Source: Malacoraja senta
Taxonomy: Eukaryota
NCBI GenBank assembly: GCA_038087875.1
Contig: CM075989.1
Location: forward strand, 3,720,001 to 3,784,000
Reading direction: 5' to 3'
Length of the DNA stretch: 64,000 nt
Shown here: positions 2,637 through 60,699 of the stretch, in pieces
Layout: every line of letters starts with the position of its first letter
How positions within the stretch are numbered: position 1 is the first letter of the stretch
Notes under the pieces: generated by a model
The model's input: the letters and a program-made list of their open reading frames with translations, nothing else
The model's database searches: none
Told to the model about the DNA's origin: nothing
Position numbers and translations under genes: made by a program

Positions 2637-4924
2637 GTAAGTATCTCTCAAGGTCTGGTTACTCATGAGTGGTTAGTGCTTCAATCAGAATTTCTTCGTT
2701 GCTATGTTAAATTCCAAACGTCTTACAACAAGGCTTCTCATGGAAGCTTCAGTCTCCGTCCAACCTGTGCCTCAATGGTGGTACACTCGTGGAATGGTGG
2801 AGCTGCTGCCTCGGAGCGTCAGAGTCCCAGGTTCAGTCCTGATCTTGGGTGATGTCTATGTGGAGTTTGCACGTTCTCTCCCTTTGACGACATGGGTTTC
2901 CTCCGGGTGCTCCGGTTTCCTCCCACATCTCAAAGACATGCGGGTATGTAGGTTAATTGGCCCCCTGTAAATTGTTCATAGAGTGTAGTGGGATAACTAA
3001 TGTGAATGGGTGATCCATGGGCGGCATGGACTCAGTGAGCCAAAGGGCAATGTTTCCATGCTGTATCTCTAAAACGTCCTTTCCTTAAGCCGGACTTTTC
3101 TCCCAATTACTGGTGTTATAAAATGCCAGTGTGTGGTTGTAGCCTGCTATGTCATGATGGATAGTCCACGGAAAACTGCCTGAGAATTGGGAGAAAGTTC
3201 TTCAACTGAGTCAGCCAAAAATCTGCACCTTGGTGTCCATCGATAGTTGGTAGTTGTAAATGTGAGAAATCTGAACTAGCAACAGTGCTGGACATACACA
3301 GCAGGTCCGAGATTGTCTGTTGAAGAGAGAAGGAAGAGTTAATGGTTCCCCTTGATGTTTAGTTTAGAGATACAGGGTGGAAACAGGCCCTTCGGCCCAC
3401 TGAGTCCGCACCGACCAACGATCCCCGCACACTAACACTATCCAACACACGGGACAATTTAGTATTTTATCAAGCCAATTCACCTACAAACCTGAATGTC
3501 TTTAGAGTGTGGGAGGAAACCGGAGCGCCCGGAGAAAACCCACACAGCTTCCACTTAAAAACAAATAAGATTATGGGCTGGAAATGATGGATACAAGGAA
3601 CTGCAAATGCTATTTTACAAAAAAAGACACAAAATGAGTGGGTCAGGCGACATCTCTGGAGAACAAGGGCAGGTGACATTTTGGGTTGGGGCCCTTCTTC
3701 AGACTGGGCTAGAAATTGTTGTGTGATACTTTGCTTTCCTCAGAGAGATTGATGTTCCAGAGCTGAATGAAATAATGTCCACTTCCATCTCACTTTGTGT
3801 CATTCAGAAACGTAATAAAACACATCCTTACCGTTAAATACACTGGAATTTCCACAAGGCTCCCCCTGGAAGCACCAGTCTCCATTCCACCCCTTGCCTG
3901 TCTCACTGCTGCCCCTAATCATCGGTCGTGTTTTAACCTTAATACCACGTGCTCGCAGCGTCAGGTACAGTGCAAAGCTTTTGTTGCATGCTAACCAGTC
4001 AGCGTAAAGACAATATACAAGTACAATCTAGCCATCCACAGTGTACAGATAGATGCATGATAAGGGAATATCATAAATAACATTGAGTGCAAGATAAAGC
4101 CAGTAAACCGATCAAAGATAGTCCGAGGGTCTCTAATGAGCTAGATGATAACTCACGACTGCCTCTAGTTGTTGGTGGGATGGTTCAGTTGCCTGATAAC
4201 AGCTAGGAAGAAATCCCCTGAATCTGGTGGTGTGCGTTTTCACACATGGGAGAGGGGAGTGTCCGGGTGTGCAATGCCTATTCAGTTGTCCGTGTAACCT
4301 TGGACTTCAGCATAGCTGAAGTTTGCAGTAGATGGAACGTGAATAGAGGTGAGCCTGCAGAAAGTTATGATGTCGTGCGACTGCTGCCCTGGCCCTACTC
4401 AGTGGGAACCTTGCACTGACAGGATGTGCAGTAGAATTTCTAGGTGAATCTATTTCATAAAAGCCCTACGTGTAGGAAAGGACTGCAGATGCTGGTTTAA
4501 ATCGAAGGTAGACACAAAATGCTGGAGAAAGAGATCAGTCTGAAGAAGGGTCTCGACACGAAACGTCACCCATTCCTTCTCTCGCGATATGCTGCCTGTC
4601 GTGCTGAGTTACTCCAGCATTTTGTGTCTACCTACTGCTTTTAAAAATAAAAATAAATCTATTGTTAATAAACTTGCTCAGTATGTTCCAATACTCCAGT
4701 TTGATGATAGAGTCATAGTCAGACAGCACAGAAACATGCCCTTCAGCCCAACTTGCCCATGCCAACCATGATCCTCCATCTACGCTACTTCCACATGTTT
4801 GGCCCATATCCCTCTAAACCTTTTCTATCCATGTACCAGTCAAAATGTCTTTTAAATGTCAATAGACAATAGGTGCAGGAGTAGGACATTGGGCCCTTCT
4901 GCCAGCAGCACCATTCACTGATCA

Positions 4925-13337: not shown

Positions 13338-13819
13338 GTAGACAAAAATGCTGGAGAAACTCAGCGGGTGAGGCAACATCTATGGAGCGAAGGAATAGGT
13401 GACGTTTCGGGTCGAGACCCTTCTTCAGACTGATGTGGGACTGACATTAGTCTGAAGAAGGGTCTCGACCTGAAACGTCACCTATTCCTTCGCTCCATAG
13501 ATGTTGCCTCACCCGCTGAGTTTCTCCAGCATTTTTGTCTAACTATGATTACATATTCTGTTTTGCTGCTGTGGCAAAATGATAATAGATATCCGTATTC
13601 AGAAAGCAGGGGTTTGGAGAAACAAAGAAAAGTACAGAGAGAGGATTGGGGAATGACACAAAGAAGCTGGCGTAACGCAGCGGGTCAGACAGCATCTCTG
13701 GAGAAAAGGAATAGGTGATGTATTGCATCGAGACCCCACTTCAGACTGTGTGACATTTCAGACAAAATGTAATATGTTGTAGAGATGGTGTCCATGATAA
13801 CAAGATGAGGAAATAATAG

Positions 13820-15228: not shown

Positions 15229-18200
15229 ATGCTAGTGTACAGGGATCGCTGGTCGACGTGGACTCAGTGGGCCGAAGTACCTAAAATAAAAGTAAAGTTC
15301 CTTCCCACACATCAAATATTTTCAGTTACACTGTTCTTGTTGACTTTCAATAAATAATTCTTGGCATTTGGTTCATCAAGTTATCACAGACTAAACTGGA
15401 AAAAAATCCTGTTTATAAGTGGTAAAACTTAACGAAACCTGAGGGAGCATCAGTTAGACTGAGCCATAATACAAAACTTAAAGCAAAGGACCAAGGTGTG
15501 GTGGGCTTATGATAGAGGTGGAGATTTGGGGATGTATTATATTGGTGGGCAGTCATTTTGTCCCCATGTGCATGGCATGTACATAGCTGCCAAGTAATAC
15601 GGATTTTCCGTATTTCGTTCGGAAATGCAATACGAATATGGAAATACGAATTTGCGTTGTTAAATACGGATTTTTTTTTTTTTTTTAAACGACCATGGAT
15701 AATCGTTACAACGAGTCACCACTGCACCGGCCATGTTGCAGCAAAATCGCCTTGGAATTTTACATTTTTAAAAAGCTCGGGTTTAATGAGTACTGCAGAA
15801 AGATTGGAGTTGTTTATCACTTAATTCAACTGAGACGAAAACGATTTGTTAACTGCCACTGTTAGCACTTGTTAACTGCCAGTAGTTAACACGTCGTTAT
15901 ACAATGTGTCACCAATACATCGATCTGCATTCCTCAGTCAATATAATTGTGTTTTGACCAAGTATTAATGACGCCGCGTTCCTTTGAATAAAATTCATGG
16001 GAGAATTTCTTAAAACTTACTGTCATTAAGGGCTCCGGACCGCGAGCATGGGCTTCTTCCTGGTGTGCAGGTACAGTCATTCACCCACGTTATTTTAAGA
16101 AACAACTGCAAATGCTGGAACAATCGAAGATAAATAAAAATGCTGGAGAAACTCAGCGTGTGCGGCAGCATCTCACCCGCTGAGTTTCTCCAGCATTTTT
16201 GTCCACCCACATTATTTAGTAATTTGTACCCGTCATTTAGGGATGTTATATGAATTTTTTAAAAATAAGTTTATGTGTGTTGTTTTCTCTCTCTCCTTCA
16301 AGGTTAGTTCTTCTGTTTGCCTTTATTTGCTTCAGTTTTATTTAGTGTTATTTATCACGTTGTGGTTGTAGCTTTTGAACGATTTAAACTATCAGATTTA
16401 AAAAATTCATATAAATTCATGGCATTGCCCGAGCGCCAAATCCCTTCAGATGTACCTGCAACTGAAGCTACGGGTGGATTAGTAGACATGAAGAGGCATT
16501 GACACTTTGTTTTTATGTAGAGGGGTAATAGAGAAGGTCTCCGGACCGCGAGCTCACTGACTGAATGTTACACAGACGTCCTGCCTGAAAATCACACCCT
16601 GCCGATCAATTATTTTAGGATAAGTCTTTCTAGAGAACATGCTACTTTTTGCTTTGCCCATTTTCAAAATATAGAATTTTGAATTTGGCGTTTGATTGGT
16701 ACAAGGAGACTACAAAGCTCTTACTATCTATTTTTTTTACACACTGTAACTTTCTACATTTCTACTTTTGGGTATGTATGTGGCAATTATGGCTCATGGA
16801 ATTTTCTCCCACACTACTAATTATATTCGTAACAACATAATTAAATACGTGAAATTTTCGATCTTTCCCAACCCCTTAAAAAATGCCTGAAGAAGGGACC
16901 CGACCCTTAACGTCTCCTAGCCATTCCCTCCATAGATAGACACAAAATGCTGGAGTAACTCAGCGGGCCAGGCAGCATCTCTGGAGAGAAGGAATAGGTG
17001 ACGTTTTGGGTCGAGACCCTTCTTCGGACCCTCCATAGATCCAGCCTGACCTGCTGAGTTCTCCAACACTTTATGTTTTGCTCTTAAAATAAATCCATGG
17101 TCCGCTGAAGAAACAACACGATAGACCACTCTGGAAGTGCAAGTTTTGCCGTACACTTCATACTGTAGAACAAACCATAATACACCCTGAGTGAATCAAT
17201 GGGGTTAGATTTTTTTTTTAAATCTGTTGTCTAGAATTAATCGATGCCCACCCTATGTACTTTATATCAGATTTAAATCGGAATTCCGATTTTTTTGTTT
17301 TCCTATTTATCAATTTTTTGTGCCCGATTATTTGCCAATCAACCACTGTCTCTAAGGGGGTAGCGTCCAATCACCGATCAGCTTCCCTTAAAATTCCCAT
17401 CCAATCAACAAATCGGTCTTCTCCCGTCCAATCAGCCGCTGTCTCCAAGGGCATTGTGTCCAATCACATAATGCGCTGGTCACTCGACGGCCAATCAGAC
17501 ACAATCTCTGAGGGGCATTGCGACCAATCACTGACTAGCTTCCCTTACAGAAAGAGCGAGATGCAAGAAAGTAGCTATGACATTATAATACACAATAAAC
17601 TGTATTACAAATACACAATAAACAAGTTATACATTCTTGTACTCATACATGGTTATGACCGCACCTAAAAAAATAATTTTTTTCAGCAAAATGGCACCGC
17701 ATAAAAATACTGATTTCCTCAGCAAAATACTGATTTTCAGGTACCAGAATACTGAAATGTTCTGACAGAACTTGGCAGCTCTGCATGTACCTTCCTGCAA
17801 ACACATCACCTAGAGGAATGGGGATCAAGGTTTTAAGCACTGGTAAAGTGCAGTGAAATGCTTTATTTTACATACAACCTAGGCAGTACAGAAGTGTTGC
17901 CACGTATCTGGCACTGACAAAGTTAGAAAGTACCGAACAGTCCTATCTACTGCCTGCCATCGGACATTGCAGCAGGCCTTCCCCTGCAGGTCTCCCCCTC
18001 AGCCCCCTTCCTCCCCCTTCCTTCTCGGCGAACCCCTCTCCCCACTGGATCCTCGTTCGCTCTCGGCGCCCCATTGTTCTTGGCGGTCACTCCTTGCTCA
18101 CAGCAGCGCGGTTCCCGTTGACGCCGGTGCCTCGGGTTAGATTTGGAGTCCGCAGTGGGCGAACCAGGCCGTGGCGGGCAATCTTTGGTCCAAGGTCCGC

Positions 18201-27534: not shown

Positions 27535-27975
27535 AGAGACCAAGTGTAGGCTCGGCGATCGTTTCACTGAACACCTCCGCTCAGTCCGTCCTAACCTACC
27601 TGATCTCCCAGTGGCTCAGCACTTCAACTTCCCCTCCCATTCCCAATCTGACCTTCTGTCCTGGGCCTCCTCCATTGCCAGAGTGAGGCCCAGCACAAAT
27701 TGGAGGAACAACACCTCATATTTCGCTTGGGTAGTTTACACCCCAGCGGTATGAACATTGACTTCTCTAACTTGAGATAGCCCTTGCTTTCTCTCTCCAT
27801 CTCCGACTACATTGTATCTTTGTCCCGCCCCTTCCCCTGACATTAGTCTGAAGACGGGTCTTACCAGAAACGTCGCCCATTCCTTCCCTCCAGAGATGCT
27901 GCCTCACCCGCTGAGTTACTCCAGCATTTTGTGTCTACCTTTGATTAAACCAGTATCTGCAGTTTTTTCTTACAC
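27535..27975 (+). mobile_element. Penelope-like 3' fragment (GIY-YIG end + terminal repeat)
   Basis: ETKCRLGDRFTEHLRSVRPNLPDLPVAQHFN, colinear with 40595-41016. Confidence 0.85.
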
Positions 27976-33489: not shown

Positions 33490-33761
33490 CTTAGGTCGAA
33501 ACCCTTCTTCAAACACCCAAATCTTCAGTCTCGACCCGAAATGTCACCTATTCCTTTTCTCCAGAGATGCTGCTGAGTTACTCCAGCTTGTTGTGTCTAT
33601 CTTCAGTTTAAACCAGCATCTGCGGTTCCTTCCTACACAACACTGTCTTTTCACTGGATCCTTCTGACTTTTTACCACTTTATCAATGTAACTGATTTTG
33701 AATATCGCTAATCTGGGGCAAAGGATGTAAAATAACAAACTTCTACATCTTTCCTCTCAAG

Positions 33762-34144
33762 GTCTCGGAGCTGTGAGTAGAACTCAGCCGACTATAGATC
33801 GAGTGCTCCCTGCAGTTGGAGGAGAAGTAAATGGCAATAGTATTCCGTCAGAGCAATCGTTTGCAGGGTCGGTGGCTCCGGAACAGACGACCAGGTTGAA
33901 GGAGGAGCTCCGAGATTTGGTTCACGTGCCGCTGCCACCGACATGGCGGAGATCGTCGCTGCCAACAGAGGAAGAACTGGACCATTTTGGCAACAGAGTG
34001 GTACAGCCTGCAGAGGGTGCCATGCACTGGAGTATCACACCCGGACAGAAACCCCAGAAAGCACCCAGGCACACAAATCTCAACGCAAGCATCAGTTACT
34101 TCAATCCTGGGATCATTGATGTCCGGAAGAATCCAGTGGGATAA
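33762..34144 (+). CDS. KIF7: KIF7 last coding exon (…REELRDLVH-like, LPPTWRRSSLP…GIIDVRKNPVG*)
   Basis: AG at 33760-33761, in phase with the previous exon; characteristic KIF7 C-terminus IDVRKNP; TAA at 34142-34144. Confidence 0.95.
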
Positions 34145-35440
34145 CCAAATGTTGGACGCCATACGCCATTTAAGAATGCAAAGAGTCAGATGTCCATTTT
34201 ATTTTGTAGAGATACAGCGCGGAAACAGGCCCTTTGGCCCACCGAGTCCACACCGACCAGCGATCCCTGCACATTAATGCTAAGGACAATACATTTTTAC
34301 ATTTATACCAAGATAATAATTAACCTACAAGCCTGTACGTCTTTGGAGTGTGGGAGGAAACTGAAGATCTCGGAGAAAACCTACGCAGGTCACGGAGAGA
34401 ATGTACAAACTCTGTGCAGACAAGCATCCATAGTCAGGATTGAACTCTGGCGCTGTGAGGCAGTACCTCCACCGCTGCACCACTGTGCTGCCCTAAGATA
34501 TACTAGTGTTTGGGAGCGCCTGATCTGATGAGTCCGCCAGAGGTCTCGATGTGAGAGAGGGATCAGCGAGGCTGAACCTGGGTCTCTGGCGTTGTAAGCG
34601 CTGTATGGCAGCAATTCTACCACCGTGCCATCGCTAAAGCTAAGAAAACAGTAGTACATAATAAAAAACACTCTTGACTTCAACATTTTGGAGGGAAAGC
34701 AACTAGTTTTCTACAAATGAACTAAAATCTGAAAAGCAACAGTTAAAACATTGTGCTGAAGCTTTAATGAACTGGGCAGACGTAATAAACGCCTTTCAAC
34801 TGACTTCACTTTAAACAAAACTCCTTAAGAGCGGCAATGAGATTCATGACTTCCGCAATTAAGGGTGAAACTCTATGAAAGAATTAGAACAACACTAAGT
34901 ATTAACAATCCCAGTGCTGGGTAGCTAAATCCACTGCCTTGATCTCGCTTGAGGAGGGAACTGCTGGGACTTCCTAAGGATTAAGTTTATCTGGTCCCAT
35001 CTGGATTTCCTTTAAAAGTAATGATAATTAATTTTCTTGTAGATGCTCTTGTGCTTTTTGTTTCTGTTTTTTCTTTGGTGGTTTGTGCTTCAGAGAGGAA
35101 CAGCTGGAATTATCCGGTCTGCCACTTTGCTGTTTAAATTTTAATTAACATTATTCTGTTGTGGAAACATTTTGTACAATTTTGAGAACCTCATCCCTTG
35201 TTTAGGAACAGGTCACTTTCATATGCCAAAAGTTGGCTATAATTTCTGGTGAAGCTCACTTTTTTGTTTCACGTTCAGATGGGTCATTGGAATTAAAAAC
35301 AAATTAAGTAATGGTTCTGAAGTTGTAGCATAGATCAAACCGTATTATCCAGAGGAAGAGTTTACAACTTGATTTTCTAATGGTTCTCAAACCACATAGA
35401 GATTCAATGATGTAAGATCAGTGTAGGAAGGAACTGCAGA

Positions 35441-35587
35441 TACACAAAAATGCTGGAGAAACTCAGCGGGTGCAGCAGCATCTATGGAGCGAAGGAAATA
35501 GGCAACGTTTCGGCCCGAAACGTTGCCTATTTCCTTCGCTCCATAGATGCTGCTGCACCCGCTGAGTTTCTCCAGCATTTTTGTGTA
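35441..35587. repeat. Perfect palindrome, 73-bp arms, 1-nt spacer
   Basis: 35441-35513 is the reverse complement of 35515-35587. Confidence 0.95.
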
Positions 35588-36124
35588 CCTTCGATTTTCC
35601 AGCATCTGCAGTTCCTTCTTTAACACAAGGAACTGCAGATGTTGGTTAACACACCGAAGATAGACACAAAATGCTGGAGTAACTCAGCGGGACATGCAGC
35701 ATCTTTGGAGAGAAGGAATGCGTGATGTTTCAGGTTGAGACCCTTCTTCAGACTCTCCCCTAACGTAGCCTGAAGGAGGGTCTCGACTGGAAACGTCACC
35801 TCTTCCTGTACTCCGGAGATGCTGTCTGACCCGCTGAGTTACTCCAGCTTTTTGTGTCTATATGGAACATGCCAGGATAGATACAGGTGTCACTAAACGA
35901 TGCAGGGAGGTCTTCTTCTTGCGAATGAAACATAAACCAAAGGACTAATTAGATCTCAAGGCGGGTGTTGAGCAGCCAGGTTGTTGTCTCTGCATCAATG
36001 TCTGCCAGGCCCCGATCTCCATTTGGTGGGTGGTAGAGCGGGCATCCAGAGGTGTAAGGGGGAGGTGGTTCTGCTACTCCCCCAGGTGTACACTACTCCT
36101 CACACTCCCGTTATTTCTGAATCC

Positions 36125-36525: not shown

Positions 36526-39370
36526 TTCTCCCGAGTTCTTCTTCCCCTTCCCTCCCCCCCCCCTTGCTTCCTTTCTCACCCTAGTCGTGTAACCAGTTCT
36601 ACCGTTTACCACACAGCATACCTCTTGAGATCACACCTTCCCCAGCCAATAATGGACCTACCAGGACACCACCCTGCCTGAGGTCATTTGCTGCCAGACC
36701 TGATTGCTCCTGGTCTTTTAGTTTAGTTTAGAGATACAGCGTGGAAGCAGGCCCCGACGGCCCACCGTGTCCGCACCAACCAGCGATACCCCGCACATTA
36801 ACACATTAACTCTACCACTACGCCACCATGCCGCTGTTTCTCGCCTCCAGCTCTTCACCCCCATCCACCCCTCTCAGCCTTAACACCCAACACGTCACCC
36901 ATCCTTTTCCTCCAGAGACGCTGCCTGATCCGTTGAGTTACTTTTCCACTTTGTGTCGATGGTGTAAACCTGCATCTGCAATGCTTCACTTCTACATCGG
37001 GAGGCGGTATTTTAGTTAGCAAGCTTTCAGCAAATGGCCAAATAAATAAAAAATATACTTGCAGTGTTGGCTCCCCGATTAATGCAGCAGTTTTTGGTTG
37101 ATGACTGTCCCAACTCATCTTTACAACTTCATCAGAGGTTGTATGGAGGGTGTGGTCACAAGGTGTGTCAAGTGTAAACAAGTAAGTCTTTCATTTGGAA
37201 CTGCTGCTGTATCTAATCCAAGAGTGCTTTATAGAACAGTGTGTAACATGTAGCTCTTCAATGCCACGTAGCTACGGACACTACTGAGCAGATAGAAAGG
37301 AGTTTTAGTTTTGTAAGCATTTCAACAATTTTCTACATAACTTTTCTGCTTTTTGTACTTTTTTAAACTCTATGGTACCAACAGGTTTACTTGTGTAGCC
37401 TATGTTTCGAATAGCAATACAAACTATTTCTTTACCGCTGTCTCGTGCAGTTATTGTTGTTGTTGCTGTTTCCAGATAAAAGGTCTCCTTGGTTGATTTG
37501 GAAACAATGTGTATAAGTCGTGCAATTCACATAAGTTTGCTTTAAGACATTCCAGGCGCCTGTTTTCAAATACAGTGATTCAGTGTTACTTTATAGTCAC
37601 ATGTACCTAGATACAGTGAAATACTTTGTTTTGCATTCACCCCGACAGCACAAGTGTCGCCACGTTTTGGCACCAACAATGTTACAAAAGTTCACCAAAC
37701 AGTTTGACCTACTGCCTGCCGCCGCACGTGGCAGCAGGCGGCCCCTCGCGTTCGGCGGTTCCCAGCCGGGTTCCCCCACCATTCTCGGTGCCCCCCTCGC
37801 TCTCAGTGACGTGGGTCCCGTCGACAATGGCTCAGGGCCAAGATCAGTCCTCGCAAGGTGAGCCAGGCCTGCAACCTATAACTGCACCCAATATGGAGAT
37901 TAGTTCAGTTTGATGATGCAGTATGGAAACCGAATGCACGCTGACCATCAATCACATGTTCATACTAGTTCTATGTTATCCCACTATCCCATTCACTCCC
38001 TACACACTAGGGGTACATTACAGAGGGCCAATTAACCTACACACCTGCACATCTTTGGGATGTGGGAGGAATCTGGAGCACCTGGAAGAAACCCACGTGA
38101 TCACAGGGTGAACACACAAACTCCACCCGAGGTCAGGATCGAACCTGGACTCTGGTGCTTTCAGGCAACAACTCTGGCAGCTGTGCCACTTTGCCGTCAC
38201 GTATTCTTGCACAGTGCCAATGTACATTCACACAATTATACAAATTTTCACAGACATGTTCTCCAGGTGTTCCATATCTTTCTAGACATGGAAGATGGAG
38301 AGAGAGAGCGGAGACTTTAGTGTAATGCATTCTTACTGGTACTGTGCATTCACTATCTCTTGGTCTGCAGATATTAGTTTAGGGATACAGCACGGAAACA
38401 GACACTTCGGCTCACCGAGTCCGCACCGACCAGCGTCCCAGTACACTAACACTATCCTACACACATTAGGGATAATTTACATTTATACCAAGCCAATTAG
38501 CCTACATACCTGTACATCTTTGGAGTGTGGGAGGAAACCGAAGCTCCCGGAGAAAACCCACGTGGTCACAGGGAGAACGTACAAACTCCGTACAGACAGC
38601 ACCGGTAGTCAGGATCGAACCCGGGTCTCTGGCGCTGTGAGGCAGCAACTCTATCGCTGCACCACCATGCCGCACACAACACACTGTTTTGGCTTGGTGT
38701 GAGGTAGGTGATGGTGGCGACCTATTGCATTTGAACATGAAAAGAAGCATTCGCACGTGCTTCCCGTCAAATAAATGTGTCTGCTTAACCGATCTTTCAC
38801 TTTACAAAGGATGGGAGAGAGAGAGGCCTGTTCACCTTACCAGTGTGGCCTACACACTTACTCTGATTAAACAAAGCATTGACATTTGTGCACAGTTGGC
38901 GATTAAGTGTGGCATCTACTGTGCACCGACACAGTTATCACTTCTTGGCCAACTCAAGATGAGAAGGTACACGAGTCTGAAGAAGAGTTTCGACCCGAAA
39001 CGTCACCCATTCCTTCTCTCCGGAGATGCTGCCTGTCCCGCTGAGTTACTCCAGCATATTGTGTCTATCCAGGCACATGACCAATTGCTTCTGACATCAC
39101 CGTCCTGAATGTTCAAATTGCTTACAGGGTCATCTGTGAGCAGAGGCTGACAAAAATGCTGGAGAAACTCAGCGGGTGAGGCAGCATCTATGGAGAGAAG
39201 GAATAGGCGGCGTTTTGGGTCGAGACCTTTCTTCAGACTGATGAGCAGAGGCTGATCACCTCATGCCTTCAGCCTGCCATTGCTCAGTTAAGCTCATTGT
39301 TCTCATTAATGATACAGAGAACAGGCTGGTTATGTCCAATTATCACACTTCCAGACATAACATCTCTTAA

Positions 39371-41016
39371 CCGAACTTATTTCCACATACCTCAACTCCA
39401 TCCTAACCCCCTGGTTAAATCCCTCCCTACCTATGTCCAAAACACCTCACAGGCTCTTCGACTACTCCATGACTTCCATTTTCTAGGCCCCCATTCCCCC
39501 ATCTTCACCATGGACGTCCAGTCACTCTACACCTCCATCCCCCACCAGGAGGGTCTTAAAGCCCTCCGTTTCTTCCTCGACCGGAGAACCAACCAATCCC
39601 CATCTACTGATACTCTCCTCCGCCTAGCGGAGCTGGTTCTTACCCTTAATAACTTCTCGTTTGACTCCTCCCATTTCCACCAAATACAAGGCGTAGCTAT
39701 GGGCACGCGCATGGGCCCAAGCTATGCCCGCCTCTTTGTAGGGTTTGTCGAACAATCTTTGTTTGAGGCGTACCAGGGCCCTATCCCCGAACTCTACCTC
39801 CGCTACATCGACGACTGGATTGGTGCTACCTCCTGCACACACACACAACTCACTGACTTCATCCATTTCACCACTAACTTCCATCCTGCACTCAAATACA
39901 CCTGGACCATTTCCGACACTTCCCTACCATTTCTAGACCTCACTATCTCCATCGCAGGTGATAGACTACTGACCGACATCCACTATAAACTCATTAACAC
40001 CCATGGCTACCTGGACTACACTTCTTCCCACCCTGCTTCCTGTAAGGACTCCATCCCCTACTTCCAATTCCTCCGTCTACGCCGCATCTGCACCCAGGAT
40101 GAGGTGTTCCACACCAGGGCATCGGAGATGTCCTCATTCTTCAGTGAACGGGGGTTCCCCTCTTCTACTATAGATGAGGCTCTCACCCAGGTCTCTTCTA
40201 TACCCCGTAACTCTGCTCGCACTTGTAACAAGGGCAGAGTCCCCCTTGTCCTCACCTTCCACCCTACCAGCCGTCACTTATAACAAATAATCCTCCAACA
40301 TTTTCACCACCTCCAACGGGATCCCACCACTGGCCACATCTTCCCATCTCCCCTGTCTGCTTTCCGCAGAGACCGCTCCCTCCGTAACTCCCTGGTTAAT
40401 TTGTCCCTTCCCACCCAAATCACCCCCTCTCCTGGCACTTTTCCTTGCAACCGCAGGAAATGCTATACTTGTCGCTTTACCTCCCTCCTTGACTCCATCC
40501 AAGGACCCAAGCAGTCTTTCCAGGTGCGACAGAGATTCACCTGCAACCTCATCTATTGCATCCGCTGCTCTAGGTGTCAGCTGCTCTACATCGGTGAGAC
40601 CAAGCGCAGGCTTGGCGATCGCTTCGCCCAACACCTCCGCACAGTTCGCATTAACCAACCTGATCTCCCGGTGGCTCAGCACTTCAACTCCCCCTCCCAT
40701 TCCGAATCCGACCTTTCTGTCCTGGGCCTCCTCCATGGCCAGAGTGAGGACCACTGTATATTGGAGGAGCAGCATCTCATATTTCGCTAGGGCAGTTTGC
40801 ACCCCAGCGGTATGAACATTGACTTCTCTAATTTCAGGTTGTCCCTGCTTTCTCCTCCCCTTCTCAGCTCTTCCTCAGCCCACTGTCTCCGCCTCTTCCT
40901 TTCTTCTTCCCACCCTCATATTAGTCTGAAGAACGGTATCGACCCGAAACGTTGCCAAATTCCTTCGCTCCATAGATGCTGCCTCACCACTGAGTTTCTC
41001 CAGCATTTTTGTCTAC
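39371..41016 (+). mobile_element. 5'-truncated Penelope-like retroelement (RT + GIY-YIG endonuclease + 3' terminal repeat)
   Basis: RT motifs TMDVQSLYTSIP, GVAMGTRMGPSYA, YLRYIDD, LPFLDL; downstream IYCIRCSRCQLLYIGETKRRLGDRFAQH; internal stop at 40281-40283. Confidence 0.93.
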
Positions 41017-43330
41017 CATCTCTTATCTCATGCTCTGTTAATTAAGTACCTCTTCGCCTGCACTTACTCGATATGCCAATGCCAGAATATACTGAATGCC
41101 TCCCAATATATTGCTGCTCTATACACTTACAATGTGGCCCAGTTCATGTCCTTGCCCTATTCTAAACCACTGGTTGCCATGGAGATAATCTTGGGGACTA
41201 CTACTGAAATGTGCTACTTGGCACATTATTCCTTTGATGTGTCTCTGTTGAGTGTGGTGTGACCATTCTACAGTGTGAGGTGATGAATATTAAAGGCTGC
41301 AATACAGTTGTACTACACTATGCTTGGGGGTAAAGATTAACACAGGATATCAGTATCTGCCGGTAACATTCATGGCTTCCTACACTCTATCCAAATAGGA
41401 CAAGAAGATCCATGTGAGCCAATGTCATTGTTATTTTCCCCATGGATGCTTTGACCTTTGGAGAGGCAACGCTTGAGTGACCTGCAGGCCACTCCCACTG
41501 TGTCTTCTTTCCCCTACTATTCATGATGTCACCCAAACCATTCCACATCTCCATCCACTGCGACCATATCACCACTTGGCACTGCACTGATATCTCCATT
41601 GATAACAATGCCTCTACCTTTGTGAGCACAAAAAGCTGGAGTAACTCAGCGGGTCATCTCCGGAGAAAAGGAACAGGTGACATTTTGGGTCGATACCCTT
41701 CTTGAGGTCTGTACAGAGATACTGCCTGACCCGCCGAGTTACTCCAGCATTTTGTGTCTATCTTCGGTTTGAACCAGCATCTAGTTCCTTCCTTTAGACA
41801 CCCTCTCCATTTTTATTTTGTTTAGAGATACAGCATGGAAACAGGCCCTTCAGCCCACCAAGTCCACGTTGACCATCGATCACCTGTTCACACAAGTTCT
41901 ATGTTCTATATTATCCCACTTTCTCATCCACTTCCTGCATACTCGGGGCAACCTTTTCTTTACAGAGGCCAATTAACCTGCAGAACCGCACGTCTTTGGG
42001 ATATGGGAGGAAACCGGAGCACCCAGAGGAAACCTTCACGGTCACAGGGAGAACATGCAAACTCCACACAGACAACACCTGAGGTGAGGATTGAACCCAG
42101 GTCTCTGGCGCCATGAGGCAGCAGCTGTCACCCTGCAAACACACCACTGTAATAGCTTTTAGATCAAACTTATTTGTTCCTGTATCTACCATCAACTCAC
42201 CTGTCTTGTTACTAAAAGTACGTGCATTTATCCTTAAGCTTTCCTAAGGGTGGCGTAGCGGTAGAGTTGCTGCCTTACAGCGCCAGAGACCAGGGTTGGA
42301 TCCTGACTGCAGGTGCTGTCTGTACAAAGTTTGTACATTCAGCCCGGGTGCTCTGGTTTCCTCCCACACTCCAGACAAGCAGGTCTGTAGGTTAATTGGC
42401 TTCGGTAAATATTGTAGATAGTCCCTAGTGTGTAGGATAGTGCTGGTGTACGGGGATCTTTGGTCAGCACGGGCTCGGTGGGCCGAAGGTCCTGTCTCCG
42501 TGCTGTATCTTCAAACTAAACTAAACTAAAGCTGGTGACATTTTATAATTTATATTCTTCCTTCCCTGATTCACTTAGTGCTTATACTTTCTGCACTTTC
42601 CTGTCATGCTTTGATCGTTGTACTGTTCCTCAGTATCCTGTGTCATGTTCACTTGTTTCTTTTGATTTATTAAACTTCCTGTTATTAGAACCCTTGGCCC
42701 AAATTAATTTGAAGTCTGGTCTATAATTAAGTGATTTAGCAAGACAACTCATCCCAGGAAGCCCTTCCCTGTGAATGAATGAATGAATATGTTTTTTGGC
42801 CAAGTATTCACATGCAAGGAATTTGCCTTGGTGCTCCGCCCGCAAGTGACAACATGACATGCAGTGACACTGTGGAACAGCTTCGCCACGACGAGTGCCA
42901 GTGCTTCTCCACTTTGCCCCAAGGTGCTCATAATACCAATGCAGAAACCTCTTCCTCATGCATTCTATACTTTTATTATCCATGTAGACCCTCACAAGGT
43001 GAACTTTCCTGACCTCCTGTCTCATATTGCTCTATCTCCTATGTCAACTGTGCTTGCCTTAAGTTGTGGCATTCACTATTAGAGTCAGGAAGTCATGATG
43101 CAGCTCTATAGAACTTTGGTTAGGTCGCATTGGAGTGTAGTGTGGAGTTCTGTTCATCCCATTGCAGGAAGGATTTGAGGCTTTGGTGAAGATGCAGAAG
43201 AGGTCTACCAAATGATGCCTGGTTTAGAGTGAATTAGTTATAAGGAGAGGTTGGTCAAACTTGGATTGGGTTTCTCTGACTGCAGGGAAACCTGAGTGCA
43301 TAGAAGTTTAAATAAGAAGTATATAGAATA

Positions 43331-44529
43331 AGGGAGTTCGGTATTCCGCAAAATGCAAGGAATCATGGGATTTGTTAAAGGTCGAAGCTATAAATAAAAA
43401 TTGAACGAAGTGAGTATCGTTTGGGTCCGATTTTTTTGGTCTTTTTTCAGTTGGCGCCCGGGGGGGGGGGGGAGACCAGGCGGGGGGTGGTGGGGGGAAG
43501 ACTGGACCGGCTCATCCGCAGTTAGGACTGTCCCCGGTTCCCCCCATTTGAGTGTCCCATCCCCGCACGGAGTGCGGCCGGAGACGTCCGGGCCGACGGG
43601 ACACTGGCCTCCCGGCCCATCACCAGCATGGAGAACCCACAGGCCCACGGGCCCACAGCCAGCATGGAGAAGCGGCAACTCCAGCCAAACCCCGCTCCAA
43701 CTGCAGAGGAACACGCTCCCCGGTTGGCTGCTACGTCGACAAGTGCCAGTTCGCCCACGGCCTGGCCGAGCAGCGCTCCCTCAGCAGCCAACTCAAGTAC
43801 AAGCCACTTGCATACCACCGGCCTCTGCCCCTACGGTACCCGCTGCCACTTCATCCACAACCCCGAGGAGGAGCAAGGACCCCGGCCTCGCCTGCGCCAG
43901 AGCGCCAGCCTGGGCTCAACCTCCTCCGGCCCGGCGCACGACTGTGCCTCGCCGCGGGCGGCCTTCAGCCCCGACCTGGAGTTGGAGCTGGCCCGGATTC
44001 CGGGCTTGGGGCTGGGCAAGGGAGGGGGAGGGGGACGAGGTTGCTGCTGCCGCCAGCACCACCAACAGCACCAGCAGCTCCAGCGGGCACCCGGCCTGCC
44101 CATGGCCGGCAGGAGCCCGTCCACAGACTCTCTCTCTCCGACCAGGACGACTCCAGCAGCAGCGGCTCCAAGTCGCCCTTCTTCGAGCAGGGCCGGCGGC
44201 TGCCCATCTTCAGCAAGATCTCGGTGTCGGACTGAGGGGAGGGGGGTGGAGGTGGAGGGCTGCCGGGACCAACCCAGCGGGACAGGCAGAGCTGAGCTGG
44301 AGCCAGCGGCTGCAAGTCCGGGGCCGCCCCGCCAGCCCAAGGCCACCCCGGACAGGGACGGGAAACCGGGGACGACCCACAGCAACTCAAGAGCATCCGC
44401 AGCGACGGAGAGCCAGGCCCGACCCCAGACGAAACGCAAGCCTGCACACAATGCAGCACCACTGTTGCCAAGACTTTATAGCTAGTGACCTATGACCTGG
44501 GCATGCGCAGTCGGAATACTGAACTCACT
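43331..44529. mobile_element. Non-autonomous TIR element carrying a captured host-gene fragment (Pack-TIR-like)
   Basis: Ends AGGGAGTTCGGTATTCCG / CGGAATACTGAACTCACT (16/18 inverted match), TA on both sides; interrupts a CR1 ORF2 remnant. Confidence 0.75.
43729..44235 (+). pseudogene. Degenerate ZFP36/TTP-family (tandem CCCH zinc finger) fragment
   Basis: Y(V)DKCQFAHGLAEQRSLSSQLKYK, then in another frame HTTGLCPYGTRCHFIHNPEE and RPRLRQSAS, then SLSDQD…RRLPIFSKISVSD* (CNOT1-binding terminus). First half of finger 1 and the TELC of finger 2 are missing; two frameshifts. Confidence 0.9.
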
Positions 44530-48284: not shown

Positions 48285-48322
48285 TGGGTCTGAAGAAGGG
48301 TCTCGACCCGAAACGTCACCCA
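48285..48322 (+). ncRNA. Putative minimal type-I hammerhead ribozyme in the Penelope-derived repeat (representative copy)
   Basis: tgggt-CTGAAGA-a-GGGT-ctcg-ACCC-GAAAC-GTC-accca: both catalytic boxes, stem II, a short palindromic stem III and a GUC site. Confidence 0.65.
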
Positions 48323-48361
48323 TTCCTTCTCTCCAGAAATGCTGCCCATTCTGCTGAGTTA

Positions 48362-53192: not shown

Positions 53193-53564
53193 GAATAACT
53201 ACATTGCATTTGTTGGACAGTGCACGCTACCAACATGATGTGCTGGAGTCAGAGTCCTACAGCGTGCAAACAGGCCCTTCGGCCCAACTTGCCCATGCCA
53301 ACCAACATGCCCCAGCTACACTAGTCCCACCTAGTGTAGCTGGGGCATGTTGGGGGGGGGCTTTCTGGAAGGGGGGGGCTTTCTGGAATGCTAGTATGGG
53401 TTGTGGGCTGAAGGGACAGGTTTCCAGAGGGCTAGTATGGATATTGTGGGCCGAATGGATTCTTGGGCTGGCGGCTCAGTCACTCAAGCCTGTTGTGCTG
53501 GCAGCTCACTCACTCACGGCTGGTGGGCTGGCAGTTGATTCACGGCTATTCCTTGAAATTCCAT

Positions 53565-53778
53565 TTCAAGCAGGGTGCAAGGCCACCAAATTCAAGTGCA
53601 GTTTCTTACCACTTGAAGCAGGGTGCAAGGCCACCAAATTCAAGTGCAGTTTCTTACCACTTGAAGCAGGGTGCAAGGCCACCAAATTCAAGTGCAGTCT
53701 CATACCGCTTCAAGCAGGGTGCAAAGCCGCCAAATTTAAGTGCAGTTTCATACCAATTCAAGCAGGGTGCAAGGCCAT
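53565..53778. repeat. 48-bp minisatellite, ~4.5 copies
   Basis: Unit TTGAAGCAGGGTGCAAGGCCACCAAATTCAAGTGCAGTTTCTTACCAC. Confidence 0.92.
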
Positions 53779-54145
53779 TAAAGACAGCAAGTCGTGACCT
53801 CTCCCTCCTCCATCTTGCAGAGACTGAGCCATGCCTACACTTCTGGGTTTTATAGTCCCTCCCCCCCTCCCACCAGATGCGGCGTGGCCTTCATGGTGTG
53901 ATTGACAGGAAAGAGAATCTCAACAATTTTTAAACACTAATAACTCTTTTATTTTTATCCGATGGGAAAAATCCTCGGCACCTGATGAGCGGAGGGGGAC
54001 TGAGTAAGATGGCCAAAAATCACAGCCATATGTGGTAGCGTTTTTTCTAAAATCAATATAAAGTGCAAACAGGAAGTGGTCAAGATTATACTTTTAATTA
54101 TATAGAAGGCAAGGCAACTTTAATTAGGCAAGGCAACATTAATTA

Positions 54146-54297
54146 GGCAACACAGCTTTAGCATTTCCAAACCAAAGGCAACACAGCTTTAGCATTTCCA
54201 AACCAAAGGCAACACAGCTTTAGTATTTCCAAACCAAAGGCAACACAGCTTTAGCATTTCCAAACCAAAGGCTACACAGCTTTAGCATTTCCAAACT
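54146..54297. repeat. 31-bp minisatellite, ~5 copies
   Basis: Unit GGCAACACAGCTTTAGCATTTCCAAACCAAA. Confidence 0.92.
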
Positions 54298-55313: not shown

Positions 55314-56918
55314 TCACTCCGTCTTTTGCTTTTTCCCACAAACAATGCGAAAAAGTTTCTTCAGTGTTCCAACCACCAGCACAGTGAGCAGGAGTAACAC
55401 AGACAACAGAAAGATCATCACATCTACACAATAGTAAGCGTACCAGGGGAGTCGGTGGGATTCTGAGCGCAAATGCCCCGCTCCTTTGTGTCGGGCAACG
55501 TACTCAACCCAGAAAACGGCTCTCTCCATTGGTGACTCTGGCTGGTCCCGATGGAGAGCGGAGAGTCTCTTCATGTTGTCCCCATAAGATGTGCCGTTTA
55601 TCACTTCATTGAGTGCCTGCAACAGATCTGTGGAGTGCATGGTTGCAACGTTGATCACTTTTGCTGCTCCTCGGGATTCGAGTCTAATTAAATTGTCAAA
55701 CTGGTCAAAAAGCAGAGGCATGCCGACCACTGGCACCCCATGGTAGATGGCTTCATAAATCCCATTGGTGCCTCCGTGTGAAACAAAGGCTCGAGTGTTG
55801 GGGTGACCCAGCAGGTCGTTCTGAGGGATCCATTTTGCCAGCAGCGTATTATTCCCTATATTGGGAGGGGTCTCACCATCATATCTCCAGATAACCTTCT
55901 GGGGGATTTGAGATAAAGCTTCTGCTATTTTCATTGCAATCTCCATTGGTAAAGAGTGGACAAAGGTCCCCAATGACATTACAACAAGTCCATGTTTCCC
56001 TGAGCTTTGGACAAACTCCTCAAACTCTGCTGCCAGAGGCCGTGCAGGTTTACACTGGAAGCCTCCGATGTACACAATGTTTGGCATGGTGGGTCTTGGG
56101 AATTCAAACACAAAATCCACCCTCAACAGCCACACATCAGCTCTGAGGAGAATCGACTTGATGTCCGTGTCTGGTCCCAGATACCGATGACAAAGATCAT
56201 TGTAATTGGGGTAAATGAACAGTTCTAAAGCAAATAGCTGAATCAGACTTTGGATGACGTTTTGTGTTCTTTGGAGAAAGGACATTTTGTCGGTCAGTTG
56301 CGAGTTGGAGACTGGGATATAGGAAGGTGGTGATGGGGCAAAGAGGGAATGTGCTTCCCCACTATCCAGCCATCGGACATTATACACCAGCGGAAGTTTT
56401 AAATAATACGCAAGCATGGGACCTGTACCAAAAAAAGGATCTGTAAGCACTAGGTCAAAATTTGCCTCTTCAAGTTGGTTTAGCAAACCCTTGTTTTCAA
56501 AAATATCAGCAATAAACCTATAAATCGTCTTATGACGATTTTGCAAAAAGGTTAATACTTCAAATTGTGACTTAACTTTGCCCCAGTAGACCCACCCACT
56601 CTGCGCAATTTGCAGTGTGTTTTGGAGAATTATTCCCACTGCATCGATCTTCTCAGTGGTTCCTTGCTCTTGAATGACAATGGATTTGTACAGGTCAGGT
56701 CTCTCTGTGATGTGCCTAGCCCCTGCTTTGTAAAGCACAGTGATGTTGTGTCCGTGAAGCTTCAGTTCTTCGATTAGAATCCTCATGTTGATCCAGTGAC
56801 TTCCAGCAATGGGAACAACTAATATATTCGCTGCCTGGTTAATGGGACAATACAGAGTGATGATAGTGCCAAGGACAAAGGGCACCAGTATTCTGCTCTT
56901 CCATCCAGAACCCCCCAT
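55314..56918 (-). CDS. UDP-glucuronosyltransferase, 534 aa, entire CDS in one exon (Ugt5-like architecture)
   Basis: ATG at 56918 then a hydrophobic signal peptide, GSHWINM catalytic-His motif, UDPGT signature WIPQNDLLGHPNTRAFVSHGGTNGIYEAIYHGVPVVGMPLLFDQ, C-terminal TM helix and KKQKTE ER-retrieval tail; no stops. Confidence 0.96.
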   Translation of the reverse strand: MGGSGWKSRILVPFVLGTIITLYCPINQAANILVVPIAGSHWINMRILIEELKLHGHNITVLYKAGARHITERPDLYKSIVIQEQGTTEKIDAVGIILQNTLQIAQSGWVYWGKVKSQFEVLTFLQNRHKTIYRFIADIFENKGLLNQLEEANFDLVLTDPFFGTGPMLAYYLKLPLVYNVRWLDSGEAHSLFAPSPPSYIPVSNSQLTDKMSFLQRTQNVIQSLIQLFALELFIYPNYNDLCHRYLGPDTDIKSILLRADVWLLRVDFVFEFPRPTMPNIVYIGGFQCKPARPLAAEFEEFVQSSGKHGLVVMSLGTFVHSLPMEIAMKIAEALSQIPQKVIWRYDGETPPNIGNNTLLAKWIPQNDLLGHPNTRAFVSHGGTNGIYEAIYHGVPVVGMPLLFDQFDNLIRLESRGAAKVINVATMHSTDLLQALNEVINGTSYGDNMKRLSALHRDQPESPMERAVFWVEYVARHKGAGHLRSESHRLPWYAYYCVDVMIFLLSVLLLLTVLVVGTLKKLFRIVCGKKQKTE

Positions 56919-56943
56919 ACTGAGGGGACGTTGTATGTAGATC

Positions 56944-56965
56944 CTGTTCAAGAAATGAAAATAAA
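56944..56965 (-). promoter_or_regulatory. Putative splice acceptor of the UGT coding exon (exon starts 56943, 25 nt before ATG)
   Basis: Minus strand reads ttattttcatttcttgaacAG|gatctac; implies an upstream exon that I could not locate. Confidence 0.7.
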
Positions 56966-56999
56966 GGTTATTTAAACAGAAAAAATCATTGTTGATATA

Positions 57000-58614
57000 C
57001 AGTGGCTTGCAAAAGTATTCATACCCCTTGAACTTTTCCACATTTTGTCACGTTACAACCACAAACGTAAATGTATTTTATAGGGATTTTATGTGATAGA
57101 CCAACACAAAGTGGTGCATAATTGTGAAGTGAAAGGAAAATGATACATGGTTTTCAAATTTTTTTACAAATAAAAAACTGAAAAGTGTGGCGTGCAAAAG
57201 TATTCAGCCCCCCTGAGTCAATACTTTGTAGAACCACCTTTCGCTGCAATTACAGCTGCAAGTCTTTTAGGGTATGTCTCTACCAGTTTTGCACATCTAG
57301 AGACTGAAATTTTTGCCCATTCTTCTTTGCAAAATAGCTCAAGCTCAGTCAGATTGGATGGAGAGCGTCTGTGAACAGCAATTTTCAAGTCTTGCCAGAG
57401 ATTCTCAATTGGATTTAGGTCTGGACTTTGACTGGGCCATTCTAACACATGAATATGCTTTGATCTAACCCATTCGATTGTAGCTCTGGCTGTATGTTTA
57501 GGGTCGTTGTCCTGCTGGAAGGTGAACCTCCGCCCCAGTCTCGTCTTTTGCAGACTATAACAGGTTTTCTTCCAAGATTGCCCTGTATTTGGCTCCATCC
57601 ATCTTCCCATCAACTCTGACCAGCTTCCCTGTCCCTGCTGAAGAAAAGCATCCCCACAGCATGATGCTGCCACCACCATGTTTCACAGTGGGGATGGTGT
57701 GTTCAGGGTGATGTGCAGTGTTAGTTTTCCGCCACACATAGCGTTTTGCATTTAGGCCAAAAACTTCAATTTTGGTCTCATCTGACCAGAGCACCTTCCT
57801 CCACATGTTTGCTGTGTCCCCCACATGGCTTGTGGCAAAGTGCAAACGGGACTTCTTATGGCTTTTTTTCAACAATGGCTTTCTTCTTGCCACTCTTCCA
57901 TAAAGACCCGATTTGTGGAGTGCACGACTAATAGTTGTCCTGTGGACAGATTCTCCCACCTGAGCTGTGGATCTCTGCAGCTCCTCCAGAGTTACCATGG
58001 GCCTCTTGGCTGCTTCTCTGATCAATGATCTCCTTGCCCGGCCTGTCAATTTAGGTGGACGGCCATGTCTTGGTAGGTTTGCAGTTGTGCCATACTCTTT
58101 CCATTTTCGGATGATGGATTGAACAGTGCTCCGTGAGATGTTCAAAGCTTGGGATGTTTGTTTATAACCTAACCCTGCTTTAAACTTCTCCACAACTTTA
58201 TCCCTGACCTGTCTGGTGTGTTCCTTGGGCTTCATGATGCTGTTTGTTCACTAATGTTCTCTAACAAACCTCTGAGGCCTTCACAGAACAGCTGTATTTA
58301 TACTGAGATTAGATTACACACAAGTGGACTCCATTTACTAATTAGGTGACTTCTGAAGGCAATTGGTTGCACTGGATTTTTTTTAGGGGTATCAGAGTAA
58401 AGGGGGCTGAATACTTTTGCACGCCACACTTTTCAGTTTTTTATTTGTAAAAAAATTTGAAAACCATGTATCATTTTCCTCCCACTTCACAATTATGTGC
58501 CACTTTCTGTTGGTCTATCACATAAAATCCCAATAAAATACATTTACGTTTGTGGTTGTAACGTGACAAAATGTGGAAAAGTTCAAGGGGTATGAATACT
58601 TTTGCAAGCCACTG
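57000..58614 (-). mobile_element. Tc1/mariner IR/DR-type DNA transposon (Passport-like), full length, transposase inactivated
   Basis: About 213-bp TIRs starting CAGTGGCTTGCAAAAGTATTCA with an inner direct repeat; TA TSD at 56998-56999 and 58615-58616; 1615 bp. Confidence 0.97.
57218..58235 (-). pseudogene. Tc1 DD34E transposase with a TAG stop (57555-57557) and an adjacent ~2-nt deletion
   Basis: Paired-like HTH N-terminus with [18 protein letters not shown] and [11 protein letters not shown] motifs (34 residues between second D and E), split over ORFs 57555-58235 and 57218-57679. Confidence 0.95.
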
Positions 58615-60699
58615 TAACTGTGCCCTTTCGCAGATACCATGGCCAAGTTAGTCCTGTGGATTGAGTGAGTTAGCATGAGAAATATTTTATGTTTTAGTTG
58701 TAGATTGTATTTCTGGATCAACAGTCACAACTCCAACATACGACCAAGGATCATAGACACAAAAAGCTGGAGTAACTCAGCGGGCCAGGCGCATCTCTGG
58801 AGAAAAGGAATAGGTGACATTTCGGGGAGGGGGACACTGGGGATGTGATAAGGTCCAGGAGAAAGCAGAGCCAGCCTTGATAACTCGGGAAAGATGGAGC
58901 CCACAATGGTCCATTGTTGGCTGGGGACGAGGTGATAATGAAGGAAAACAAACGGTGAAATTAGCAAGAATACTAGGGTGGGGGACGGACAGAGAGAGAG
59001 AGGAAATGCAAGGGTTACTTGAAGTTAGAGAAATCAATATTCATGCCACTGGGTTGTTTAAGGAGCAAGATGTGCCAGGGAGTTGTAAATCCCAGCACGG
59101 TGTATCAATGGGCCTCATCCTCTAGCATGTAACTAAAACCAAGTTTGGGAGCCAGAGAGGACCAAATGCCAGATCAAGTATTGAAAAGAAATGTTAATTA
59201 AATATAAAACACCAAGAAGCATTTTGATATGACTCTTCCATTTCCAACACCATGAACAAGTCAGTCCTGAGTTAACATGGTGAGATATTTTTCTGCCATG
59301 GAGATTGTTTGTGTTGGGTCAGTTGTGTCAGTAGTTGACTAAGAGCAGGACGTGTGGAGGTTTGTACGCGGCAGGTCACGTCTCACTAACCTGATTGAGG
59401 ATGTGGCAAAGGTGGACAATGTTGTCTCCATGGATTTTAGTAAGGTGTTAGATAAAGTCCCCCATGGTAGGTTTCTCTTTTATTGATAGACACAAAATGC
59501 TGGCATAACTCAGCGGCACAGACAACATCTCTGGATAGAAGGAATGGGTGACATTTCGAGTCGAGACCCTTTGTTGCGACTGGAATTGTCCTTCCATCAC
59601 AACCCTCTGTCTTCTATCAGTAAGCCAGCTTTAAATCCATATGACCATGTCACTGTTAGTCCCGTGCATCTTAAACATACCATTCCTCCCCTTCCCCACC
59701 ACTCCAACTACATTCCATCCTCTAGCTTCACAATTTGCAACTCTTCAATCCTCGCAACTTCTGCCTTTTCATCTCTGGCCTTTGTCAACCATCAGCCTAT
59801 TAACCCCCTCACACCCCTCACCCACCCCCCCCCCCCCCGCCCCTCGCCTGTGTTCACCCACCATGCTCTGATGTGCCCTTTCTCTCCTACAGCTTTCTCT
59901 CTCCCTCTGCCTACAATCAGTCTGAAGAAGGATCCTGAACAGAAGTCACCTATTTGTGTTCTCCAGAGATGTTGCCTGACCCGCTGAGTTACTCCAGCAC
60001 TGTGTGCCTTGCATTGTTATATATCCGACGTCAGACTGAATTCTAATCTGCATCTGAGAGAGTAATTATAACAGTTTATCGAAGACTTTGTCAATAAAAT
60101 ACGTTTTGTCACTTACTTATGAAGCCAAAGTTGAAAGCGGGGGAGAAGTGTGTTCCCGATAGACGAGACTCCAACAAGAGCGTAATGAAGTTCAGTTTGT
60201 AGCTACAAAACCTACATGGAATTCCAATTGCAAAGTTTGTTTTTGCACAATAGAAGCTCCACAAACCGTTCCTGTTTAGCAGGTTATCAGTTCCGATTAT
60301 TGTGCGCAACATATGCAAAAAGAAGAAGAAGAAATTCCGATTATCAGCATTGACTCAGCCAATGAAGGTGTTGCTTGTATCAACATAAAATTAACTTAAC
60401 CCTTTGATAATGAATTGCTCTATTTCCATTCTCAATTTAGTTTCAAGATACAGCATGGAAACAGGCCCTAAGGCCCACTGAGTCGAGTCCGACTATGAAT
60501 CACCTGCTCACACTAGTTCTATGTTATCCCACTTTCTCACTCACTCCCTGCACACTGGGGGAAAGTTACAGAGGCCAATTAACCTACAAACTCACACATC
60601 TGTGGGATGTGGGTGGAAACCGGAGCACCCGGAGGAAACCCCGACGGTCACAGGGAGAACGTGCAAACTCCGCATAGACAGCACCTGAGATCAGGATTG

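Follow-up and report, generated by a model that had tools for sequence, protein, structure and literature searches.

A repeat with a hammerhead-like motif in the KIF7 region of Malacoraja senta and its relation to Penelope-like retrotransposons

A short repeat recurs throughout a 64-kb stretch of the Malacoraja senta genome (contig CM075989.1, positions 3,720,001 to 3,784,000; hereafter the window), and one copy, behind a decayed reverse transcriptase (RT)-endonuclease frame, closes an element at 39370-41016 (hereafter the focal element). The locus raises the question of what this repeat is, whether its hammerhead-like core can cut RNA, and how so many short copies arose. An earlier note on the same DNA had read the repeat as a Penelope 3' end with a minimal hammerhead and had proposed a retrozyme-like family. 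We consider that a Neptune-type Penelope-like element of skates has, in several of its subfamilies, a pseudo-LTR (pLTR) whose 3' end is this unit, with the known minimal type I hammerhead; a probability of about 0.87 was assigned to this whole explanation, its anatomy and its inferred parts taken jointly.

The repeat unit and the focal element

The window was searched with the two-box pattern CTGANGA-N(3-25)-GAAAC, which gave 13 matches, 12 of them inside the repeat unit, against 1.15 +/- 1.06 expected from 100 shuffles, none of which reached 13. Among the matches were the copies already named at 4540, 13452, 25013, 38977 and 48290 (+), at 13404-13428 and 33157 (-), and at 27848 and 40926; those near 39210 and 45015 also exist but are mutated, and all earlier coordinates agree within a few bases. 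A profile built from 12 window copies found 51 copies of the unit (3,996 bases, 6.2% of the 64-kb window, to which all copy counts refer) and 0 matches in the reversed window, and BLAST with four window copies as queries returned 53 merged segments. The unit is ~95 nt long, with a density of about 0.8 copies per kb in the window. A pattern from its non-ribozyme half had no match in viral, metagenome or prokaryote contigs. Rfam gave 0 matches over the whole window at the gathering score and no hammerhead family at 40700-41100 up to E 10, which is no evidence against a hammerhead because minimal motifs fall outside the Rfam models.

The focal element is bounded by a 9-bp target-site duplication, the same 9-mer adjoining both homology ends at 39361-39369 and 41017-41025 (+). 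Domain matches and homology identify 39370-40838 (+) as a 5'-truncated, decayed Penelope-like ORF with RT, thumb, CX4CxxC linker and GIY-YIG endonuclease. It contains one in-frame stop near 40281, its Pfam matches (RVT_1, E 1.7e-5; GIY-YIG, E 1.5e-4) are both below the Pfam cut-off, and it is 65% identical to whale-shark protein P0005 over 451 aa. The RT has its nearest matches in batoids, with 82% identity to proteins from Amblyraja radiata and Leucoraja erinacea, and two cysteines of the linker are invariant in 17 sequences. A CX2-5CxxC linker marks the Neptune and Nematis clades (PMC8557442), and Neptune was preferred from the vertebrate host rather than from a tree, since only Neptune and Poseidon are reported from vertebrates (bioRxiv 10.64898/2026.07.22.740005). 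As in Neptune (PMC8557442), RT is followed by a C-terminal GIY-YIG domain with this linker between them, and 5' truncation, inverted 5' copies and a 30-40 bp tail at one end occur; unlike Neptune as described there, the skate window is strongly enriched in 90-200 bp insertions over ORF-bearing ones.

The ORF is followed on the same strand by an 85-nt pyrimidine-rich 5' part of the pLTR (40839-40923), a putative short intron with GT at 40838 and AG at 40923-40924. The motif comes next: the 2-nt 5' strand of stem I (GU, 40924-40925), whose positions 2.1/2.2 covary; the C3-A9 box (CUGAAGA) with an extra A between 9 and 10.1 (40926-40933; pattern and alignment); stem-loop II (40934-40945), with C at 10.1 and its closing pair broken; and, from the alignment, the GAAA box, the CG of a loopless palindromic stem III and UH (40946-40953), the predicted cut lying after 40953. 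The 3' strand of stem I and the remainder of the unit run from 40954 to the first, tail-less 3' end point at 41016, as placed by the 51-copy alignment and by read depth. At both 40926 and 27848 the motif does stand behind a GIY-YIG frame as the earlier note had said, but not directly, with gaps of 85 nt and 68 nt; the latter copy belongs to a second endonuclease remnant with a short pLTR, the motif and a tail (27536-27975, +; homology). This linkage to an RT-endonuclease ORF, and the motif behind the ORF of relatives, bear out the reading of the unit as a Penelope 3' end.

A GT at the last ORF codon followed by a pyrimidine tract was seen in three endonuclease-linked copies (40838-40924; 58990-59030, -; 36520), and in the focal copy the tract closes with AG one base ahead of the motif, which recalls the intron in the pLTR of D. 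virilis (PMC2377424). The joints do not support such an intron up to the hammerhead: no splice joint for it was found in RNA reads among 15 of 55 joints listed, and one DNA contig joint (40834 to 40923) is one base off the expected intron joint. The reading of 39149-39240 (-) as an inverted 5' repeat of the focal element was rejected, because flanking repeats give this 91-bp copy (39151-39241, -), whose core scores as broken, its own 14-bp duplication and thus make it an independent insertion.

The hammerhead register in relatives and in RNA reads

Positions follow the standard hammerhead numbering. The register comprises the 5' GU of stem I, CUGAAGA, the extra A, a 4-bp stem II with a 4-nt loop, GAAA, CG, UH and the 3' strand of stem I. 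For comparison, 80 metagenome loci encoding related proteins were fetched, and the 41 in which the match reached the endonuclease end were kept. The motif was present within 600 nt behind the ORF in 16/41 loci, at a distance of 101-304 nt and in four sequence families (11, 2, 2 and 1 loci); as controls, the antisense strand and the final 600 nt of the ORF each gave 0 matches, and shuffles averaged 0.09. Of the remaining 25 loci, 8 showed the motif when at most 2 substitutions were allowed, and nothing was found downstream of the ORF in 17/41, 7 of which have <240 nt of downstream sequence. A first box CCGANGA (U4 to C) was seen at L030:2394-2421 and L055:1129-1156, in L016, L019, L021 and L032, and in the window at 16937-17030 (-); it is apparently a fixed variant in some of the related loci.

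Covariation was scored on 15 hand-picked motifs (3 from the window, 12 from metagenome loci) and reached 0.622, against 0.185 when shuffled (0/500) and at most 0.139 when slid. Stem I pairs 2.1 and 2.2 are each paired in 14/15 motifs, with 6 and 7 two-sided changes, and the outer positions in 9, 5 and 7 of the 15; the stem has 2 bp in the skate copies and, in most relatives, 3-5 bp with covariation. The boxes and, in part, stem II had guided the choice of motifs but stem I had not, so stem I is the independent evidence. The G10.1-C11.1 pair that closes helix II is kept in 14/15 aligned motifs, the focal copy being the exception, and the extra A in 15/15 and in 28 of the 30 window copies that cover the position. 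The ACGU palindrome (15.2-16.2) is invariant in all 15, with CpG-type decay in many window copies, and as a loopless stem III it can pair only between two motifs. Dimer cleavage was reportedly described by Lunse et al. 2016. Behind their endonuclease genes, distant relatives thus carry the motif, in which both stem I and stem II show compensatory changes, and on this ground the register is taken as real; with the boxes, stem II and the palindromic stem III, this upholds the identification as a minimal hammerhead and the expectation of stem II covariation.

Minimal hammerheads have been described in the pLTRs of metazoan Penelope-like elements (Neptune, Poseidon and Xena, including those of fish) by Cervera & De la Pena 2014 (PMC4209133). 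The skate motif shares with them the pLTR position, the boxes, the extra nucleotide at 9/10.1, G10.1-C11.1 and the palindromic 15.2-16.2; the extra A, which the earlier note took for a tolerated exception, is the rule there. Close opposite-strand pairs occur in both, next to thousands of dispersed single motifs from truncated elements in that survey. Helix I usually has 4-5 bp there, in contrast to the 2 bp of the skate, which D. virilis shares (skate helix II has 4 bp), and dimer activity was low. The main-text results and discussion of that paper name no cartilaginous fish, next to which stands the skate density of about 0.8 copies per kb.

RNA reads came from a polyA library of another organism, a relative, of which about 6% of the run was sampled. 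Position 10.1 (40934), a C in the focal copy, is G in 1977/2112 reads (94%), and H17 is C in 1091/3178 and otherwise mostly U. The differences listed within the motif concern 10.1, loop II, the loop-closing pair (U-A or U.G) and H17 (C/U), with none at core bases among 40 of 99 differences listed. Read depth rises 6-fold across 40923-40924 (332 to 1983) and 913 reads leave into low-agreement sequence, a step to which the different upstream pLTRs of other subfamilies contribute; it fits a start of the template RNA there. Depth falls from 41017, where tail-like loose ends begin. No pile-up of read ends was found at the motif in this polyA-type library, which may not retain cleaved ends. Read orientations over the unit are within 11% of each other, and over the endonuclease about 2 to 1. 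This bias in polyA reads was seen over the endonuclease end at 40690-40850, and if the library is dUTP-stranded, it would mean that long copies are transcribed mostly antisense.

State and insertion of the copies

The motif is spanned by 24/51 copies, both boxes and UH are intact in 13/51, and three copies are structurally complete, with a 4-bp stem II, the ACGU palindrome and a 2-bp stem I as well. The focal copy retains the CUGANGA, GAAA and UH core, but C.C at 40934/40945 replaces the G10.1-C11.1 pair and its active fold lies 11.6 kcal/mol above the minimum (stem II scored from its base); it is defective. Most copies, this one included, are decayed, and it is improbable that they cut RNA. 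In the complete copies the active fold is predicted at 3.9-5.8 kcal/mol higher than the minimum. Two of them (13401-13428, -; 13452-13479, +) form a head-to-head pair at 13339-13540 in a KIF7 intron, and the third (48285-48361, +) is, by motif scoring and folding, the sole copy with a 5-bp stem I, formed via its junction with upstream sequence. RNA of 13339-13540 is predicted to fold as one 202-nt hairpin (-196.6 kcal/mol), with a stem II probability of 0.0. The pair is a near-perfect inverted repeat of two young copies, predicted to give long double-stranded RNA, which would likely be a substrate for editing or small-RNA pathways. Nine further head-to-head pairs were seen.

Conservation was assessed at 10 core positions, with CpG sites (G12 among them) left out. 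Mismatches occupied 11/240 core cells versus 128/1145 downstream (p 0.0013; both members of inverted pairs were counted and are not independent). Once subfamily-variable columns were dropped, a step that is partly circular, the downstream rate (38/780) was at parity with the core (p 1.0); such columns numbered 0/10 in the core versus 16/52 downstream (p 0.052). Excess conservation of the boxes therefore holds against all downstream columns but not after subfamily-variable columns are removed, and because the difference vanishes in this way, the data fit a constraint that acts on source elements while the copies decay neutrally.

The unit inserts by retrotransposition, with target-site duplications. 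Exact flanking repeats of at least 8 bp were found at 10/40 units (2 of the 10 discounted) versus 6/300 random placements, and a looser search (at least 10 bp, 1 mismatch) separated them more weakly (8/40 versus 7/120). Among 15 adjacent copy pairs, 10 are head-to-head, 4 tail-to-tail and 1 direct; the head-to-head doubles that have duplications are 185-203 bp long. A ~35-nt tail extension was scored strictly, and 10/51 copies passed. The region 35420-35860 holds a nested cluster of four copies, in which a head-to-head double flanked by a 14-bp tail repeat seems to have landed in another copy's tail.

The 5' starts of the 51 copies fall at the upstream edge of the motif (28), between stem II and GAAA (17) or further down (6), and none of the 51 begins at the hammerhead cut site. 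By eye, 7 of the 28 edge-reaching copies continue into the pLTR, 10 adjoin an inverted partner and 11 adjoin other sequence; three 5' ends defined by duplications lie at -5, -2 and +1 of C3. Starting at the upstream edge and never at the cut site, the short copies suggest run-off cDNAs from uncleaved RNA.

The first 34 kb of the window belong to KIF7, the host gene named in the earlier note, whose last 12 coding exons were mapped to 240-34141 (+); the last (33755-34141), placed by homology, is 90% identical to Leucoraja erinacea kif7. Its span holds 32/51 copies (18 sense, 14 antisense). The KIF7 stop codon is 6.8 kb short of the copy at 40926, which is hence outside the coding span. Further along the window, 55314-58247 (-) contains an uninterrupted UDP-glucuronosyltransferase-like frame of 577 codons (Pfam UDPGT, E 4.8e-163), with a Tc1/Sleeping Beauty-like transposase over two frames ahead of it (57218-58247), and the GC-rich stretch 43398-44495 (+) has a CCCH zinc-finger match (E 5.7e-5) across shifted frames. 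The latter presumably resembles a ZFP36-type gene or pseudogene.

Competing explanations and meaning

Under the preferred reading, the motif in source elements would be a weak ribozyme that needs a dimer and probably a protein, and selection on the element would maintain it. The ~50 dispersed copies would be short products of the autonomous element's RT, started at two sites ~35 nt apart (with or without the tail), often as head-to-head doubles, on a template of uncleaved RNA, and decaying neutrally since. They would be transcribed passively as part of host RNA, and it is very unlikely that they cut it. The closest parallel is the Anolis carolinensis Poseidon element (Frangieh et al. 2024, PMC11167929), which likewise has two 3' end points (tail), a minimal hammerhead where pLTR and ORF meet, a lack of RNA ends at the cut site and insertion from uncleaved RNA; inverted copies and tails were explained there by two internal starts of reverse transcription on uncleaved RNA. 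It differs in belonging to another clade, without the linker, and in its protein-assisted cleavage in vitro, where hammerhead activity of the skate source elements is argued by homology.

The alternative that we rate highest, though still improbable, is that the motif is homologous to an active hammerhead but cleaves in no context and was kept as a promoter or protein-binding sequence. The skate motif may be such a predicted non-functional relic, since its 2-bp stem I is under the usual 4-5 bp and its active fold lies above the minimum; it also has a competing helix in which the first box and the 5' strand of stem II pair with sequence behind the cut site, neither insertions of the window nor reads of the relative show a trace of cleavage, and cleavage proved dispensable for insertion of the anole element (PMC11167929). 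Against this, the competing helix is no stronger than in shuffles (p 0.19-0.24, window copies), D. virilis likewise has a helix I of 2 bp (PMC4209133), core columns are spared from subfamily variation as given above, and the subfamily changes respect a ribozyme: they fall in loop II, exchange U-A for U.G in stem II, C for U at H17 and A for G at 1.1 opposite U. The idea that this pairing forms a conserved 'off' helix was dropped, 1/14 motifs being below p 0.05 versus shuffles. Less likely again is a separate SINE-like, non-autonomous element (95-130 nt) that descends from the pLTR end, is transcribed from its own masters and relies on the Neptune protein in trans for its mobility. Units exceed endonuclease remnants about 13 to 1 (51 versus 3 by tblastn and 1 by eye), short units have their own duplications, and the 5' boundary is sharp, with the 6-fold depth step and 913 reads into heterogeneous sequence at 40923-40924, as this explanation would have it. 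Yet ORF-linked and solo copies have the same subfamily-diagnostic variants in the alignment of 51 copies, a promoter head and an A-rich tail are lacking, 5' ends scatter by several bases with 23/51 starting within the unit, and the depth step comes partly from subfamilies with different upstream pLTRs.

The retrozyme-like family of the earlier note, that is, self-cleaving tandem multimers that propagate through circular RNA, is very improbable. Non-LTR retrozymes (PMC7229834; bioRxiv 10.64898/2026.07.22.740005) have in common with the unit a type I hammerhead of the same motif class, ancestry in PLE pLTRs and high copy number, and the bioRxiv source records them in the one chondrichthyan sampled. 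They form tandem arrays of ~150-450 bp, mostly carry canonical motifs and give rise to circular RNAs (PMC7229834), whereas the skate unit is dispersed, single or inverted, and ORF-linked, the end of RT-endonuclease elements with target-site duplications. No array of the unit was found among 17 tandem-repeat rows of the window, and the one direct pair among the 15 has a first member without the first box; neither tandem complete hammerheads nor a helix I of ~6 bp (2 bp here) were found. The motif is minimal rather than canonical type I, and it stands uncut at the head of the unit, where cleaved monomers would begin at the cut site. Arrays of 30, 48 and 31 bp at 53463-53777 and 54107-54296 are unrelated to the unit. 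More remote still is the idea that sense copies regulate KIF7 by cutting its pre-mRNA in cis. The sense ribozyme-like motifs claimed for KIF7 introns do exist, 4 with both boxes intact, but 4 antisense copies match them, with no strand bias, and a single sense copy is complete. Three of the four have a stem defect and the fourth, complete one sits in the 202-nt hairpin; the four lie in four different introns, 3-12 kb apart, and the copies show no excess conservation.

The motif itself is unremarkable and adds a further host lineage to a class known since 2014. A Penelope-like expansion in whale-shark introns has been reported, and in the literature covered, from which subscription papers and repeat databases are largely absent, no skate or shark report of this family's motif or of 5' clustering was found; the clustering of 5' ends at the upstream edge of the motif is suggested as the sole lead beyond it. 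Tentatively, and at somewhat under even odds, the RNA starts at this edge or is spliced just before it, and RT, which starts internally, mostly uses the pair of tail sites near the 5' end. Such run-off would yield products of 90-130 nt, and head-to-head doubles of ~200 bp when both nicked strands prime. If this is true, an autonomous Penelope-like element makes its own SINE-like progeny, possibly >1 million copies in skates, and the short copies map the 5' end of the RNA and reveal a transposing template whose hammerhead has not been cut. A vertebrate here tolerates many intronic hammerhead-like cores with no visible strand bias, as expected if the cores are inactive alone. Should the ~0.8 copies per kb of the window hold genome-wide, skates would carry a very large record of Penelope insertion intermediates, one that bears on the priming and finishing of reverse transcription and on hammerhead cutting in vivo.
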